From IMG/VR virus record IMGVR_UViG_3300035182_001315: DNA of 64,000 nt, one strand, 5' to 3'. The DNA is from a virus. Lineage: Duplodnaviria; Caudoviricetes. Below the pieces are notes generated by a model. The model was not told the origin of the DNA. It made no database searches and saw nothing but the letters and a program-made list of their open reading frames with translations. Shown here piece after piece: positions 7,772 to 15,529 of the stretch. Made by a program: the position numbers and the translations under genes. Each line of letters begins with the position of its first letter. Position 1 is the first letter of the stretch.

Positions 7772-8152
7772 TTATACCTTGATAACTACAAAATCCACTG
7801 TATCGAACACGTCATCGGTTACTATGTAGTCAACCCTGATTACCGCAGCATAGTCACTATCCTCTGATTGTGTTACAGTTATGTCCTTTATTGCAAGATG
7901 CGGAAGGTATTTTTTAACTGCATTGGTCACTTCTTCCTTGATATTTTCGAGGGTAAGATTATCGTTTGGTTCGAAAATGTATTTCAAAAGGTTTGTTCCG
8001 AAATCTGGATTATAAAGCCTCTGACCCTTTTTGCTCAGCAAAAGATGCATCAAATCGGCCTTGATTGCTCGCTGGTCGTCTGAATTTAGGTTCAAAAAGA
8101 ACCCTTTTGGACTGTTTTTGAAGGGAAAATCTATGTTTATATATCTTGACAT
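7772..8152 (-). CDS. Baseplate wedge protein gp25-like (GPW/gp25 family)
   Basis: IKADLMHLLLSKKGQRLYNPDFGTNLLKYIFEP motif; 126 aa. Confidence 0.9.
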   Translation of the reverse strand: MSRYINIDFPFKNSPKGFFLNLNSDDQRAIKADLMHLLLSKKGQRLYNPDFGTNLLKYIFEPNDNLTLENIKEEVTNAVKKYLPHLAIKDITVTQSEDSDYAAVIRVDYIVTDDVFDTVDFVVIKV

Positions 8153-8155
8153 ATT

Positions 8156-8881
8156 TTAATTTTTGAATATCCATTTGAAACCACCAGTGGTTGCTCGTTG
8201 GCCCTTGCATACCAGTGTTATATTACTTTCTTGTATTCTTAACATTTTAGCCGCTTCTCTACCACCAATCCACTCCTTTATAAAATTCCCGTTTAAATCT
8301 AATTGAATTACTGGCTTCCTTTTTTTATTTTTAGTTTCTTCAGTGTGTTTGAAACCAGTTGCGTTTCCTTTCTTTCCGAGTTTTGCTTTTGATTGTTTAT
8401 CCTTAGTAGCTTGGGATACTTCTACACCAAGTCTTGCTGATGGTAATCCGATATGGCTCAATGACATATTTTTCCTACTTTCTTCAGAATGTTTTCGACC
8501 GAGATTATATTTGTTCCCTAAATTCCTATTACTCAACCATTTACTAAAATTCTCATCACGTTTTAATGTTCCGCCGCCACCATTATTGGAATTCACCAGA
8601 GTAAACCCCCAACTTTTTACTAATGAAATCCAGAATTTTTCCAATAATTTATAGTCACAATTTTCTTCTAAAACTTCGTCCAGAATGATTTGTTGAATCT
8701 TATAGGAATTTTGAGAAATCCAAGATGTTCGTTTGTTCTTTGTGGGTGTGGCCTTAGCTTCAAATAAATGACTTTTTAATCGATTTTTTGGATTCCGTCT
8801 CGTTACTCCAATATATTTCAATACATTAGGTTCACTTTCAGAAACCAGAGCATAAATGTTTATGTACTTGCCATTGGCCAT
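8156..8881 (-). CDS. GIY-YIG homing endonuclease (NUMOD3/NUMOD1 DNA-binding tail)
   Basis: NIYAL...KYIGVT...RLKSH; LVNSNNGGGG; HSEESRKNMS and HTEETK repeats; PVIQLDLNGNFIKEW...GGFKW. Confidence 0.9.
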   Translation of the reverse strand: MANGKYINIYALVSESEPNVLKYIGVTRRNPKNRLKSHLFEAKATPTKNKRTSWISQNSYKIQQIILDEVLEENCDYKLLEKFWISLVKSWGFTLVNSNNGGGGTLKRDENFSKWLSNRNLGNKYNLGRKHSEESRKNMSLSHIGLPSARLGVEVSQATKDKQSKAKLGKKGNATGFKHTEETKNKKRKPVIQLDLNGNFIKEWIGGREAAKMLRIQESNITLVCKGQRATTGGFKWIFKN

Positions 8882-8960: not shown

Positions 8961-9139
8961 TATGGTTTTATGAATTCATCTCTGAGGGCTTTGGATACCT
9001 CTTCGTAGGTTTTGTCTTTGTTTTCAAGTACAAAGTTGAGTTGGTCTGGGTAACGCTTGGCCACCTTATCAGTATTCCCTTCTTGTACAAATAGATGAAA
9101 GGCTGTAAGCTTTCTCATCATTAACTCTTCTGCCTTCAT
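8960..9139 (-). CDS. Small hypothetical protein (59 aa)
   Basis: MKAEELMMRKLTAFHLF...; ATG at 9139 follows the repaired stop of the PAS gene; followed by a terminator. Confidence 0.6.
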   Translation of the reverse strand: MKAEELMMRKLTAFHLFVQEGNTDKVAKRYPDQLNFVLENKDKTYEEVSKALRDEFIKP

Positions 9140-9143
9140 CGGC

Positions 9144-9534
9144 TTAAATTGGCTCAGGTATCGCAATTCCGTAGTTTTTACCATTAATCCAAACTGATGC
9201 AAACCAGCGGATTTTTTATGTAATCACCATCTTTTGTTCTATATCTGTTTACAAACCCATCCAGCAGCGTCCCGGCTGGAATCTTGCTTACTTCAATCGT
9301 TTCAAGTAAATCATCTGGGTGTACAAAATACGTCCAAGGATGTGTGGTTAACTCTTCTGCCGTCCAACCAAATAATTTTGTCCACGCTGGGTTCACTTCG
9401 GTAAAAGTCCCCTTCACATCAGCGATACAAAACAAAACAGGTACAAGTTTAAAGAAAAAACTTAAATCTGTTTCTACATTCGTTAATTTGGCTGTTAATT
9501 CACGAATCTTATTTAGGTTGTCAGGCTTACTCAT
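9144..9534 (-). pseudogene. Stand-alone PAS-domain protein with a +1 frameshift in an A6 run
   Basis: FTEVNPAWTKLFGWTAEEL...FVHPDD...FVNRYRTKDGDYIK is a PAS fold. Removing one A at 9212-9217 restores IKIRWFASVWINGKNYGIAIPEPI*, the expected final PAS strands. Confidence 0.75.
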
Positions 9535-9577
9535 AACAAAAACAAAGAATTTATAATAAATATCTCGTTTATAACAT

Positions 9578-9609
9578 AAAAAAAGGATATACCTGTTTGT
9601 GGTATATCC
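9578..9609 (-). terminator. Rho-independent terminator after nrdA-C
   Basis: GGATATACC-N7-GGTATATCC then T7 on the minus strand. Confidence 0.8.
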
Positions 9610-9618
9610 CCTTTCTTT

Positions 9619-10773
9619 TTAAGAGCTGCATCCGATACATTCGAACTGGCTATTTTCTGGTTTTTCTGGTTGTTTTTCCTGTAAATCGATTGCCAAATGC
9701 TTGGCTTTCATGTCAACTGCCTCACTTCTTAAATAATATTGCCCAGTTTTTAATCCAAGCTTCCATCCAAGCATGTGAGCTGTTGTAATTCTACTTACTG
9801 TTGGTGTTGAGAAGAAAATATTAAGACTTTGTGATTGGTCAATGAACGGCGCACGTTCTGCTGACATCTCAATAAGTGACTTCTGTGATATTTCCCAAAC
9901 AGTTTTATAAATTTCTTTCAATTCCTGAGAAATACCCGGTATGTTTTGAACACTACCGTTGTTTTTTATCAATTCCTTAAGCATTTCCTTGCTCCATAAT
10001 CCTTCTTTCTCCAATTCAGCAATCAAATACTTATTTACCATGGCAAATTCACCACCTGTTACCGCTCTTACATATAAGTTTGATGTAAAGGGTTCAAAGC
10101 ATTCGTTAGAACCAATGAGACGTGCGCTTGATGCTGTAGGCATGCCGGTTGTTACAAGTGAATTGTAAAGACCGTACTTCTTTATGCTCTTTGCAAGTGC
10201 TTTCCAATCCCACATTCCACTCAAGTCAGCCTCAGTAAGGCCCCACATGTTCCATTGGAATACACCTTGTGATATTGGTGAGCCTGAGAAGTTCTCATAT
10301 GTCTTACCAGTTTCCTTTGAAATCTGATTTGATTCAGATAGAGCATGGTAATAAATTGTTTCGTAAATATTTTTGTTGATAACTCTCGCTTCTGGTGAAG
10401 TAAAAGGCAATCTTAAGATTGCAAATACATCAGCCAAGCCCTGAACACCGATACCCAACGCTCTCTGCTGCTTTCCGCCAGCTTCACCTTCCGGTGTAGA
10501 GTATTCGTTAACGTCAATTGCAATGTTGAGGCTGCGAACAACTGCTCTTGTAACCTTACCTAACAATTCATAATCATATGTACCATCAGCCTTAAAGAAT
10601 TTCTGTACTGGGATTGAAGTTAGCGTACAGATAGCTGTTATGGTTGCTGAAGTATTCTCCATAATTTCAGAACAATTATGAACCAATATACCATTAGCAA
10701 AAAAATTATAATTATCTTCTACCGTAATATCATAGACATTTTTTCTTTCGTTCAATTTTTCTATTCTTAACAT
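9619..10773 (-). CDS. nrdA: Ribonucleotide reductase alpha subunit, C-terminal fragment preceded by split-intein C-half (IntC)
   Basis: MLRIEKLNERKNVYDITVEDNYNFFANGILVHN|CSEI...; then AICTLTS, LGIGVQGLAD, GMPTASS, IDQSQSLN, GLKTGQYYLRS and terminal CIGCSS. Confidence 0.95.
   Translation of the reverse strand: MLRIEKLNERKNVYDITVEDNYNFFANGILVHNCSEIMENTSATITAICTLTSIPVQKFFKADGTYDYELLGKVTRAVVRSLNIAIDVNEYSTPEGEAGGKQQRALGIGVQGLADVFAILRLPFTSPEARVINKNIYETIYYHALSESNQISKETGKTYENFSGSPISQGVFQWNMWGLTEADLSGMWDWKALAKSIKKYGLYNSLVTTGMPTASSARLIGSNECFEPFTSNLYVRAVTGGEFAMVNKYLIAELEKEGLWSKEMLKELIKNNGSVQNIPGISQELKEIYKTVWEISQKSLIEMSAERAPFIDQSQSLNIFFSTPTVSRITTAHMLGWKLGLKTGQYYLRSEAVDMKAKHLAIDLQEKQPEKPENSQFECIGCSS
10675..10773 (-). 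mobile_element. Split intein C-half (33 aa)
   Basis: Block F VYDITV..NYNFFANG and block G VHN, followed by +1 Cys; has its own ATG. Confidence 0.92.
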
Positions 10774-10778
10774 CTCTT

Positions 10779-11513
10779 TTAATTTTTAAATTTCCACTTA
10801 AATCCACCGGCAGCAATACCCGTTTTACAAGACCTACTAATACCGGATTTACATTTAATGTTATTTTTTTCAGCAGCCTCAACAACTGTTTTGTATGACT
10901 CTATTTCCTCACCGTTCAATGTCATTTTAATAACGCTCTTTGCCTTTGGATTATTTTCCCGTCTATTATTATCTGACATAAGCTTTCTCGTCTCCTCCCC
11001 GACTCTTCGACCCTTATTCCAATGAGTACCACTTATTTTAGCAATATGAGAGGGCCTCTTTTCTAATGGAAGACCGTACATATTATTATTTTTACCAGTT
11101 GCATTAAGCCTATATTTTTCTCTAATTTCTTCCTTACGGATATTGTTTGAAAAAGTATCTCCACCGAATCCACCAACGCATATATTAGTTAATATACCAG
11201 TTTTATTATAACGAAATCCCATTAGCGAAATGAGAAGTATTTCAATATCATAAGCCACGTTTTCCTGAAGATTATCAAGAACTTTTATAATTATTGGTTC
11301 AGCACCTGATGCAAGAATCTAATTAATTACATGTAATTTATATTGGTTATTGGTAACGTCTGGTTGTCCCTTTTTAATTACATTTAAATGCTTTAAATAA
11401 CGACCAGACTTTCCCTTTCCAATGTAAAAAGACTTAAATTCAAATACGTAATTTCCAAACTTATAACATCCCGGATATCTTGGGTCAAGGTATGCATAAA
11501 CATAAAAATTAAA
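10779..11513 (-). pseudogene. Decayed GIY-YIG homing endonuclease between the two nrdA halves
   Basis: Hand translation: FNFYVYAYLDPR...FYIGKG...KHL...VIN-TAG(11319-11321)-ILASGAEPII..., continuing in frame into ORF 10779-11258 (NUMOD3/NUMOD1, GGFKWKF). No ATG/GTG/TTG start; frame differs from both nrdA halves. Confidence 0.85.
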
Positions 11514-13098
11514 TAATTAATAAAATATCTTCGGGAACTAAATCCTTTGTGAAAACATATCCTCTATTTTTTGTGAAAACCTTATGGTCTCCAGTGCATA
11601 TTAACTCTTTTCCAGTTTCTTCATCAGTAACCCTATAAACTTCAGCGTCATTACCTGTTAATGCTCCATTAATTATTTTTTTGTATTCAGGTTTACCGGT
11701 ATGTTCGTTAAATCCTAATACCTCAATTGGTTCCATATTATACGCAACAACGTCTTTCCTGAAATATTCAACTGCCTCTTTTATTGTGGTTTTTTTATAA
11801 GTTTCACCGATTTTAACACTCATTTCAGTATTTTCATCGACACACAAGTTTGATGAGTGAATAACACCAAAGTTCTTCTGATTAGATTTTTTGTTTGCGT
11901 GGTCCTTAAAGCACATGTACGGCATGCCGGTTTCAATCTGTGATTCAAGAATCTTCAACCACAAGTCATGAGCTTTTATCTTTTTACCAATACCTAAAGC
12001 AACAGCCTTGTTGTATTCTTCTTCAAATTCTTCACCATAGATTTCGTAGAATGGCTTAAGGCCAGCCTTAGCAATATCGTATGGGCAGAACAAATGCCAG
12101 TCACTGTTGGTCTCTACAGCCCTCATGAAATTATCAGAAGTCCATAAAGCAGTAAAGAGGTCTCTTGCTCTAAGTGTGTCATCACCAGTTTTCTTTCTGA
12201 TATCCAAAATATCAAAAACATCTTTGTGCCATGGCTCAATATAAATTGCACATGACCCCGGCCTCTTACCCCTTTGGTTCCAAAAACGAAGGGCTTCGTT
12301 GATAATCTTTAGATATTTCAGAACACCACCGGCTTTACCATTGCTGGAGCCAACTGGAGATTCTTTAGAACGCATGTTAGATACAGCCAAGCCAATACCT
12401 TCAGCTTTTGATGATGAGATAGACAATCTGCTAAGCATACCCAATAACCCGTCAGTTGAATCGTCTGGGATAATGGAAAGGTTACAAGATGCAATCTGGG
12501 CAATCTTGGTACCGATGTTAAGCATGATTGGAGTGGCTGGGGAAATCATGTGGTTTGAAAGGTACTCATAGAATTCCTTAAATTCTTCAATTGTATTGGT
12601 CAGCATCAGGGCCACACGCACATACATGTGCTGAGGTCTTTCTGAGATAACTGAACCAATCTTAAGGAGATAGATATCCTTAAGTGAAGACCAACCGAAA
12701 TAGTCGAACCGGTAATCCTTTGAATAGTCGATTACCTGTTCAACAGTCTCATGATATTCCTTAACCTTGTTATAGTATACATCGGACAGTACACCGGCTT
12801 TATAGAGTTTCTTTGTGGCTTTCACGAAGGAATCTTCTGTTTCCTTATGAAGCTTACTGATTGCAATATTTGCTGCCAGTTTCGAGTAATCAGGGTGATT
12901 CATTGTCATTGACTCAGCGACGATAGAGATTAAATCATCTAACTCTCTGGTTGTCATATTATCAGCGATACCTTGTGCTACTTTGAGGAAAACGTCATCT
13001 GCATTTATCTTTAATCCTTTTGATTGAGTTTTAATTCTTAACAAAATCTTGTTTGGGTTGAAATCGATTTTGTCTCCGTTTCTTTTTACTATTTTCAT
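11509..13098 (-). CDS. nrdA: Ribonucleotide reductase alpha subunit, N-terminal fragment (ATP cone) ending in split-intein N-half
   Basis: MKIVKRNG ATP cone; SPATPIMLN; GSCAIYIEPWH; ETGMPY; SSNL|CVDENT... intein to the stop codon. Confidence 0.95.
   Translation of the reverse strand: MKIVKRNGDKIDFNPNKILLRIKTQSKGLKINADDVFLKVAQGIADNMTTRELDDLISIVAESMTMNHPDYSKLAANIAISKLHKETEDSFVKATKKLYKAGVLSDVYYNKVKEYHETVEQVIDYSKDYRFDYFGWSSLKDIYLLKIGSVISERPQHMYVRVALMLTNTIEEFKEFYEYLSNHMISPATPIMLNIGTKIAQIASCNLSIIPDDSTDGLLGMLSRLSISSSKAEGIGLAVSNMRSKESPVGSSNGKAGGVLKYLKIINEALRFWNQRGKRPGSCAIYIEPWHKDVFDILDIRKKTGDDTLRARDLFTALWTSDNFMRAVETNSDWHLFCPYDIAKAGLKPFYEIYGEEFEEEYNKAVALGIGKKIKAHDLWLKILESQIETGMPYMCFKDHANKKSNQKNFGVIHSSNLCVDENTEMSVKIGETYKKTTIKEAVEYFRKDVVAYNMEPIEVLGFNEHTGKPEYKKIINGALTGNDAEVYRVTDEETGKELICTGDHKVFTKNRGYVFTKDLVPEDILLII
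11512..11844 (-). mobile_element. Split intein N-half (111 aa)
   Basis: Starts at Cys1 (CVDENTEM) right after RNR SNL; block B ICTGDHKVFTKNRGYV; ends DLVPEDILLII*. Confidence 0.92.
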
Positions 13099-13112
13099 TT
13101 TTCTTCTTTATT

Positions 13113-14066
13113 TTAAATATCCTCATCGAACGTAATCGCACCTGTTAAATCGGCAGCTTTGTACTCTGACGACCTGCCTTCAAAGAAGTTTTGTTTCGTC
13201 TTCAAAGCGATTTGATTCATGAAATCAAAGGGATTTTTTGAGTCAAAAACCTTGTCACATTTTAACTGAACTAACAGTTGGTCAGTCACATACTCAAGGT
13301 AAGTTTTCATCAATTCATTGTTCATTCCAATGAGTGAAACGGGTAATGATTCGGTAATAAATTCCTTCTCAATTTCTAATGCAGATAATAAAATTTCTTT
13401 TATTCTTTCTGGGGAAACTTTGTTAACAACGTAATCGTTATAGATGTGGATAGCAAAATCGCAATGCATCGCCTCATCCCTTGAGATGAATGCGTTACTC
13501 TTACAGAGCCCCGGCATCAAACCTCTTGACTTCAACCAGAAGATAGAACAAAAGCTACCGCTGAAGAAGATACCCTCAACTGCCACAAAAGCTAACAGTC
13601 GTTCGGCAAATGATTCGGATTTAATCCAGTCCAAGGCCCAAGTAGCTTTTTTCATTACTGGTGGCATAGTTTGGATAGCGTGGTAGCATTCATTCTTTTC
13701 AGCTGGGCTCTTGATATAGGTGTCAATGAGCATAGCGTAAACAAGGCTATGAATGTTTTCCATCATGATTTGAAAACCGTAAAAGAATCTTGCTTCAGGG
13801 TATTGCACTTCATTCATGAAGTTTACCGCAAGGTTTTCGTTAACGATACCATCGCTGGCTGCGAAAAACGAGAGGATGTTTTTAATGTAGTACTTCTCGT
13901 TTTCGGTAAGTTTGTTTTCCCAGTGGTCGATGTCTTGGCCAAGGTCGAGTTCTTTTTCTGTCCACATGGCCGCTTCTGCGTCTTTGTAATACTGCCAGAT
14001 ATCATGGTATTGTATCGGGAAGATTACGAACCTGTTAGGGTTCTCTACTAATATTGGTTCTGTCAT
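13113..14066 (-). CDS. nrdB: Ribonucleotide reductase class Ia beta subunit
   Basis: [46 protein letters not shown] di-iron motifs. Confidence 0.97.
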
Positions 14067-14068
14067 TT

Positions 14069-15529
14069 TTAATTGGTTAATGGTGTGATTTGTGGTGTAA
14101 TATCTGTTGGTACTGTAGCCATTGGGTTTCCTGCACCGGCCAAAGCTTCCTTGCGCTTACGAATAACATCAAGAATACCAGCTACATACTGCTTTTCTTC
14201 CTTCTCCTTGTCCTTGTTGTAGTTACCTGTGCTCTTCGCTTCGTTAGCACCCATGTTGATTTGGATGGTACCGTTGTTAAAAATAATGTCCTGTAAGATG
14301 ATACCGTCCTTGCCGAATCTTGACTTAAGAATGGCGATGGTTGCGGTACCGTTTTCCTTCTGGTCGAGAGTCTTCGCTATAGACAATACAAAGTGTCCAA
14401 TTTGGCCCTTCTTGATAGAACCGCCCATTTGGTCAGCTTCAACAACTTCGGCCTTTATTGAACTTCTATTGCCCTGTACAGCCGTCCAGCCAGCGATATC
14501 GAAATCGGCAAGCATTGCCTCAAATTGTCTCATAACACTACCTTCACCGGCATTAACATCATCAAACTTCTTTGATGGCACAACGCAGTCGATGTAGTCC
14601 AATAAGATAAGGTCTGGCTTAAAGCCTTCGGCAATTTGTTTTCTGATATACTGGCGAATCATTGGAATGGTTGTACCATCGCTAGAGAATTTCTTCAGCT
14701 TCAATACTCCCGGCTCTTCGTTCTTTCTGATTGCAAGCTCTTTCAACTCATCCCTATGAAGGGTCAATGAGTTTAAGTCATATCCAGACCAGCAAGCCAA
14801 ATGCTTCCTTTGAATAACCTTTGGCATGTCTTCAAAAAATATTTGAAGAACGTTATACCCAAGGTCCTTAGCGGTGTTACCAACCTTGGTCATGAATGTT
14901 GTTTTACCAACACCGAATGGGGCCAAGACAATAGCTAATTCCTGTTTAGATAAACCGCCGTCCATAATTTCATCTAATCCCTTGATTCCTGTTGGAATAG
15001 GCTTTCTGAAATCATCTGCAAGCACCGCTTCGATGTTATCGGTAATGTTGATTGCGTTGTCTTTATTGTCACCATGCTCCATAGCCTTTTTCAAGACTTC
15101 TTCGCAATAGTCGTATTGGCTTATATCACCTCTGTCAATAATTTTTTGAATTTCTTTGATTGCCTTGTTAAGCTCTTGTTGCTTACAAAATTTCATCGCC
15201 TTATCTTGGACAGCAAGACCATCATTAAAATTTACATCCTTGATGGCCTTTAACTGCTGAAGTGCATACTTTTGGTCAAACTCATTTGTTATCTTGTCTA
15301 ACAATCTGAATTCCAAGCTACCAATATCTGGTATGATGTTATATTCATTATACGCATCCTTGATTGTTGATACGATAATTTTAAGGCTTTGGTCTTCGAA
15401 GTAATTGGCATCTATAATCTCAACTATTGATTCAGCGAACTTCGTATCTACGAGTAATTGGGCTACCAATCTTAATTGGAAATCTGCACCCAAATACCCG
15501 AAACCATCTCTTTTAATTACTTTCGACAT
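14069..15529 (-). CDS. Replicative DNA helicase (DnaB / T4 gp41-like)
   Basis: [16 protein letters not shown], Walker [33 protein letters not shown]. Confidence 0.93.

Follow-up and report, generated by a model that had tools for sequence, protein, structure and literature searches.

Phage genes broken in two by a split intein, the halves of which flank a free-standing homing-endonuclease gene, are a known arrangement. Dassa, London, Stoddard, Schueler-Furman and Pietrokovski (2009) described 26 such 'fractured gene' loci, seven of them in nrdA (NrdA-1 to NrdA-7), with GIY-YIG or Vsr-like genes between the halves (PMC2677866). One of these, NrdA-2, is naturally split with the junction SNL/CNE, and Pinto et al. 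(2020) showed its cis-splicing, its trans-splicing and its orthogonality (PMC7090010). A different kind of broken nrdA is that of phage Aeh1 (Friedrich, Gibb and Edgell; Crona et al. 2011, PMC3045599), which is split by the HNH endonuclease gene mobE and whose two chains are described as assembling non-covalently (PMC2677866). Here we analyze a further fractured nrdA, encoding the large subunit of a class Ia ribonucleotide reductase (RNR), in a 64,000-nucleotide stretch of DNA from a large, uncultured caudoviricete phage (IMG/VR record IMGVR_UViG_3300035182_001315), hereafter the window. With high confidence, we read the locus as a gene whose halves are translated separately and joined by protein trans-splicing at the radical cysteine, and whose intervening GIY-YIG endonuclease gene has died.

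The insertion point is the one found in NrdA-1 to NrdA-7 (PMC2677866), and the resemblance to these loci extends to most features. Like them, the window carries a class I RNR large subunit interrupted at SNL/C, directly N-terminal to the thiyl-radical cysteine, in split genes on the same strand that end and start with intein halves; a free-standing GIY-YIG-type gene and a phage-like origin are common to both. The NrdA-2 sequence printed in the supplement of PMC7090010 shares with the window the motif regions C1, DEETG, CTPDHKVY, NRGYV and NFFAN.ILVHN. The window differs from the seven in being another allele, in coming from sediment or microbial mat and not from the ocean surface, in its apparent Bacteroidota host, and in an endonuclease gene that looks like a recent pseudogene. 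Aeh1 offers a more distant parallel: there too a phage nrdA is cut in two by a free-standing homing-endonuclease gene, but no intein is involved (PMC2677866), whereas intein halves flank the break in the window, a contrast that had been drawn correctly in a preliminary description of this DNA.

The genes of the locus lie on the minus strand. Directly downstream of an intact nrdB (positions 13113-14066; 317 amino acids; Pfam Ribonuc_red_sm, E 6e-104), which encodes the RNR small subunit, the first nrdA open reading frame (ORF), nrdA-N, runs from 13098 to 11509 and encodes 529 amino acids. Its first 418 residues (11845-13098) are extein and end in IHSSNL; they are followed by a 111-residue N-terminal intein half (IntN; 11509-11844 with the TAA stop, coding 11844-11512) that begins CVDENTEM, contains C83-T84-G-D-H87 and ends in DILLII. 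The second ORF, nrdA-C (10773-9619), encodes 384 amino acids and opens with its own ATG, which has an in-frame stop four codons upstream and the endonuclease stop five nucleotides upstream. Its first 33 residues, MLRIEK...ILVHN, form the C-terminal intein half (IntC; 10675-10773; MLRIEKLNERKNVYDITVEDNYNFFANGILVHN), after which the 351-residue C-extein (9619-10674 with its stop) starts with CSEIMEN, the codon of its first cysteine occupying 10674-10672. The 735 nucleotides between the two ORFs are occupied by the GIY-YIG frame, which is in another frame. The coordinates, lengths and residues quoted in the preliminary description are correct to the base, as are the separate start codon of nrdA-C and the position of the GIY-YIG gene between the halves.

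Domain content follows the same division. By Pfam, the N half contains the ATP-cone, Ribonuc_red_lgN (the all-alpha domain), positions 1-214 of Ribonuc_red_lgC (the first part of the barrel) and Intein_splicing; the C half contains positions 125-155 of Intein_splicing and positions 212-523 of Ribonuc_red_lgC. Since the two Ribonuc_red_lgC segments adjoin, there is neither a gap nor an overlap between the halves. Besides the N-L-C-x-E motif at the junction, the C-extein retains the QYY pair and a C-terminal CIGC.

The exteins are colinear with unsplit NrdA and abut exactly on 770-residue homologues. Residues 1-419 of the N half correspond to residues 1-420 of one such metagenome protein (P0052; 78.6% identity), and residues 34-384 of the C half to its residues 420-770 (71.6% identity); where the window is broken at SSNL/CSEI, the homologue reads SSNLCSEI without interruption. 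The residue that opens the C-extein (the +1 Cys) falls opposite position 429 in an alignment with human RRM1 (3hnc; E 2.6e-107); in class Ia RNR this position is the thiyl-radical cysteine, equivalent to E. coli C439. The intein is therefore inserted directly before the thiyl-radical cysteine, and the spliced product would be a 769-residue NrdA reading ...SSNL-CSEI... across the junction.

The two terminal segments carry the residues of a class 1 split intein. Cys1, the block A nucleophile, directly follows SSNL; block B is represented by T84-G-D-H87 of IntN; and IntC (...VYDITVEDNYNFFANGILVHN) provides the block F Asp and the block G pair H32-N33, followed by the +1 Cys as acceptor. In an alignment with 31 relatives, whose IntN are 31-54% identical to that of the window, the Cys1 column, N-L-C, the Thr and His of block B and the N-R-G core of TKNRGY are invariant, and all aligned sequences end at about one position, so that the split point of IntN is common to the family. 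Residues 12-110 of IntN match the NrdJ-1 intein (PDB 8ubs; E 4.3e-13), including KTTIKE and TKNRGYV. For IntC, the PDB matches are to the C-terminal ends of the Spl DnaX mini-intein (E 1e-5) and of gp41-1 (E 8e-5); its match to NrdJ-1 is weak (E 0.06). The preliminary description had proposed a split intein whose +1 nucleophile is the radical cysteine, and a likeness of its IntN to NrdJ-1; both proposals stand.

NrdJ-1 (8ubs, 9omb) is accordingly a member of the same sequence family, with KTTIKE, CT.DH, TKNRGYV and the split position in common. It differs from the window in its insertion point, which lies one residue downstream, after the catalytic cysteine and with Ser at +1, and in its host protein, a class II RNR (PMC2677866). 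We note that the window's relatives include N-halves with the same displacement: in six sequences (P0039, P0040, P0042, P0046, P0048 and P0049) the junction reads SNLC-CL..., with the intein one residue further downstream, after the catalytic cysteine. The position corresponds to the NrdJ-type insertion point of Dassa et al., here in N-halves that bear an ATP-cone and are ~520-530 residues long.

In the predicted complex, which scores 0.91 where the best control scores 0.01, IntC is docked on IntN; at least 99% of contacts are shared between runs, and the predicted local distance difference test value (pLDDT) of the partner is 92. The model passes a mark that is reached by 51 of 78 solved complexes and by two of 108 mismatched pairs. 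In this model the halves are predicted to fold into one HINT domain. Because similar complexes (NrdJ-1, gp41-1) have already been solved, the pass speaks for likeness to them and is not proof that this copy binds.

Several features of the halves weigh against a functional intein. Block B is CTGDH, against CTP(D/E)H in most relatives, the window's IntN contains a six-residue insertion, and the Pfam Intein_splicing scores of the two halves, 24.1 and 32.4 bits, stay below the curated cut-off of 35.8, as is expected for half-domains. That this allele splices is what its conserved residues and its relatives suggest.

Could the two NrdA chains instead assemble non-covalently, with the intein halves acting only as docking domains? 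Aeh1 NrdA is described as functioning as two chains (PMC2677866; PMC3045599), and the complex model supports tight docking of IntN and IntC. However, the break in the window falls directly before the radical cysteine, and an unspliced HINT domain of 144 residues would sit in the active-site loop. In addition, all splicing residues are kept across the relatives despite the divergence of their IntN, which docking alone would not require, and the related NrdA-2 does splice (PMC7090010). We consider docking without splicing very unlikely.

In the trans-splicing reading, a mobile cassette of two elements, the split intein and the free-standing gene for a GIY-YIG homing endonuclease, would be inserted directly before the thiyl-radical cysteine codon. 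The two nrdA genes would be translated separately, and IntN and IntC would associate into one HINT domain. Splicing, of the canonical class 1 type, would begin with an N-S acyl shift at Cys1; the N-extein would then pass to the +1 Cys, later the catalytic cysteine, and Asn33 would cyclize. The ligated 769-residue NrdA would work with the adjacent NrdB. As the active site would otherwise stay interrupted, the phage's own RNR would depend on trans-splicing.

Expression of the halves was considered at the level of signals. The nrdA-C leader is A-rich and devoid of a Shine-Dalgarno motif, like those of the phage's other genes. A scan for sigma-70 promoters found the sequence no richer than shuffled versions, a terminator scan yielded seven sites where shuffles gave 3.7 (standard deviation 1.7), slightly above expectation, none of them lying in the nrdA gap on the minus strand, and the TATATTTG motif has no copy near the nrdA locus. 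Given these results, we infer only that the halves may be co-transcribed.

The endonuclease frame (10779-11516, in the +1 frame relative to nrdA-N) comprises 245 codons and TAA and has no start codon. Over 244 residues it is 68% identical, in a single frame, to an intact 257-residue endonuclease at the same place in a related locus (L004), and when read through an in-frame TAG it matches the LEM-3 GIY-YIG family (PF22945) with 45.9 bits against a cut-off of 27; a Pfam match to NUMOD3 is weak. Thus the frame retains the GIY-YIG domain and the NUMOD-type region that a functional endonuclease would have, but not an uninterrupted ORF with a start.

Two lesions account for its present state. In two relatives (L004 and L008), the stretch between the IntN stop and the endonuclease codons Y-Y-V-Y holds a stable hairpin and the endonuclease ATG. 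A DNA alignment with them shows that a 57-nucleotide deletion in the window took the hairpin, the ATG and the first codons. At the scar (11505-11511), only four nucleotides now separate the endonuclease codons F-Y-V-Y from the stop of nrdA-N; before the GIY motif, the window's endonuclease frame contains no ATG, GTG or TTG. The hairpin of the relatives (6576-6624 in L004, with an equivalent in L008) is a perfect one of 19 base pairs (-26.7 kcal/mol, z -7.3) that ends two nucleotides before the endonuclease ATG. It agrees with the hairpins that Dassa et al. (2009) identified as translational control elements upstream of these endonuclease genes (PMC2677866), and it is this same segment that the window has lost. 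The second lesion is the TAG (11319-11321), where relatives have CAA (Gln). The longest ORF that remains (10779-11258; 159 amino acids, GTG start) covers the C-terminal half only and is devoid of the GIY and YIG motifs and of the Arg. The decay of the GIY-YIG gene proposed in the preliminary description is borne out by both lesions. Because the catalytic motifs are unchanged, the inactivation looks recent, and the sequence suggests that the gene is now a dead passenger. TAG does not appear to be recoded but acts as a true stop in this phage: table 11 leaves every long ORF open, and two genes of the window end in TAG, with TAA ending 36 of the 39.

The TAG is a polymorphic site. Four metagenome runs from sediment and microbial mat, each assembled on its own, contain the locus, and the window DNA itself may come from three of them. 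Their contigs cover both junctions without insertions or deletions; one is 24 kb long, and another (X4; 2977 nucleotides) differs from the window by three single-nucleotide polymorphisms (SNPs). The SNP at 10528 is synonymous in nrdA-C, that at 11473 changes Pro to Leu in the endonuclease, and that at 11321 (A>C on the plus strand) turns the TAG into GAG (Glu) in this one of the four assemblies. Both TAG and GAG are two steps from the relatives' CAA. All four assemblies thus share the deletion of the start, and polymorphism persists at the nonsense codon. Of the three SNPs, two lie in the endonuclease and change its protein, which is consistent with relaxed constraint on this gene, though a test would need more than three SNPs. 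In this lineage the endonuclease, the former agent of the cassette's spread, would thus be dead through the 57-nucleotide deletion, with the nonsense codon in most, not all, of the sampled populations. The intein could not decay in the same way, because a loss of splicing would also lose the RNR, and it would persist as a stranded element.

The pseudogene within the same cassette also lends itself to another explanation, namely that the phage's nrdA, broken by the cassette, is dead as well and that the phage uses the RNR of its host. The exteins do not fit this proposal. They are full length and free of stops and frameshifts, and they share 72-79% identity with unsplit homologues and 71-78% with the exteins of related phages; N-L-C-x-E, the YY pair and the C-terminal CxxC are kept; nrdB is intact; and the single nrdA-C SNP among the populations is synonymous. 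A dead nrdA consequently appears most improbable.

The GAG variant raises a further possibility: if translation slipped by +1 where nrdA-N stops, NrdA-N, IntN and the endonuclease would be made as one fusion, and a split-intein fragment would thereby carry its own homing nuclease. In this variant the endonuclease frame is open for 245 codons, in +1 relative to nrdA-N, and starts inside the last IntN codons (ATT ATT TAA T). Against a slip, it would require a U-U mismatch in the first position of the codon, no stimulator can be seen, and the missing endonuclease start is explained by the 57-nucleotide deletion relative to the relatives. Moreover, a fusion made from the window's own TAG allele would stop after 66 residues. 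We give such a fusion scarcely any credence.

An RNR gene interrupted by an intron was dropped as a candidate after an Rfam search at E ≤ 1 over positions 9000-13500 yielded no group I or II intron and no other family. That the layout is an artefact of assembly or sequencing, concealing either an unsplit intein that encloses an endonuclease domain or an intron spliced out of the RNA, we regard as practically negligible: nothing was found in its support beyond the metagenomic nature of the contigs and the possible identity of three of the four runs with the source of the window DNA, whereas the four runs' contigs agree without indels (including the 24-kb contig and that with three SNPs), the endonuclease frame differs from that of IntN, the IntC ATG follows an in-frame stop, the same split point occurs in more than 70 loci, endonuclease-free relatives read stop, one nucleotide, ATG, and no intron is matched in Rfam over 9000-13500. 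Because the four runs agree and over 70 related loci are split at the same point, the layout is neither a chance pattern nor the product of a single assembly.

We therefore return to the separately translated, trans-spliced nrdA and to the family in which it belongs. Its arrangement shows what defines a fractured gene: two ORFs on the same strand in N-to-C order, the first ending with IntN and a stop and the second starting with an ATG and IntC, and a free-standing endonuclease gene between them, here inactivated. The protein database contains ~50 clusters of N-halves, roughly 300-560 amino acids long (some cut by contig ends, a few longer than 560), that terminate with a related IntN inserted at this site or next to it, and IMG/VR contains 328 contigs with a relative. 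Among 86 loci inspected for their arrangement, many of them near-duplicates, 61 are split with an ORF filling the gap, nine are split without an endonuclease gene, three (the window included) are split with a broken endonuclease gene and three have a contiguous intein; for the other ten the arrangement was not determined. Fractured nrdA genes of this kind have thus been on record since 2009 and are common among phages; the preliminary description overstated the significance of this one. The allele itself is new by sequence: across the final 150 residues of nrdA-N its nearest database matches reach 61-62% identity, and its IntN alone is 54-57% identical to the nearest relatives found.

Loci without an endonuclease gene show how far the loss can proceed. 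The endonuclease is intact in L004 and absent in L001. In the latter and four others (L002, L003, L006 and L007) there is no endonuclease gene at this site, and the nrdA-N stop is followed after one nucleotide by the IntC ATG (TAA-A-ATG; 6585-6592 in L001). This junction marks the last stage in the loss of the endonuclease and probably permits coupled translation of the halves. In these five loci and in the gp41-7 locus of Dassa et al. (2009), as in the window, the split intein outlasts endonuclease function; in them the endonuclease gene is wholly gone, whereas in the window a dead copy of almost full length remains. The same intein lineage also has contiguous (cis) versions at this site (P0041, 712 amino acids; L034, L046 and L076), which links the split family to mini-inteins.

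The closest relatives of the window (L001-L010) share with it the gene order 5'-3' exonuclease, helicase, nrdB, nrdA and gp25. Their nrdA is in three pieces (5001-8243 in L001, 5001-9346 in L004), with a second, unrelated split intein at PTAS/S, of which the IntN is ~113 residues long, starts with CQVIG and contains TPNH, and the IntC has 35 residues and ends ...CVSHN before Ser. In the window PTASSARLIG is uninterrupted, so only the first split is present. A literature search for natural genes with two split inteins returned nothing relevant, a blank that is not evidence of novelty.

As regards the phage itself, megablast of the locus against 50,697 phage records gave no match, and tblastn with the helicase gave matches of at most 31% identity, from which it follows that there is no close cultured relative. 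Over the whole window, none of the 39 gene starts has a Shine-Dalgarno motif, and leaders are A-rich. Together with the predominance of TAA stops and helicase matches to Flavobacterium phages, these sequence features suggest a Bacteroidota host. The DnaB-like helicase has 486 amino acids in the window (14069-15529), 442 in L004 and 773 in L001 (1097-3418); the long form in L001 may carry an insertion, possibly an intein.

Two further genes near the locus deserve mention. A second free-standing GIY-YIG/NUMOD endonuclease gene (8156-8881, minus strand; 241 amino acids), which is intact, lies between a gp25-like baseplate gene (7772-8152) and a small ORF, and it is not a close paralogue of the dead endonuclease in the nrdA gap. 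Directly downstream of nrdA-C, an ORF of 116 amino acids (9184-9534, minus strand) is a PAS domain (PAS_3, E 3e-8); a stand-alone sensor-type domain of this kind is unusual in a phage replication module.

In sum, the locus adds one more natural NrdA-type split intein, with an IntN ~55% identical to the nearest found, an unusual CTGDH block B and a six-residue insertion. As a tool for ligation or as an orthogonal intein the allele is a candidate for screening, one among hundreds of natural alleles that are equally untried. Current understanding of fractured genes is unchanged, and the local twist is an endonuclease gene between the halves that has only just died. Together, the window and its relatives show the stages of a homing cassette, with a live endonuclease, one freshly dead with a polymorphic stop, one deleted, and a contiguous intein, and the locus illustrates why a split intein persists beyond its nuclease when it is placed at a residue essential for catalysis.

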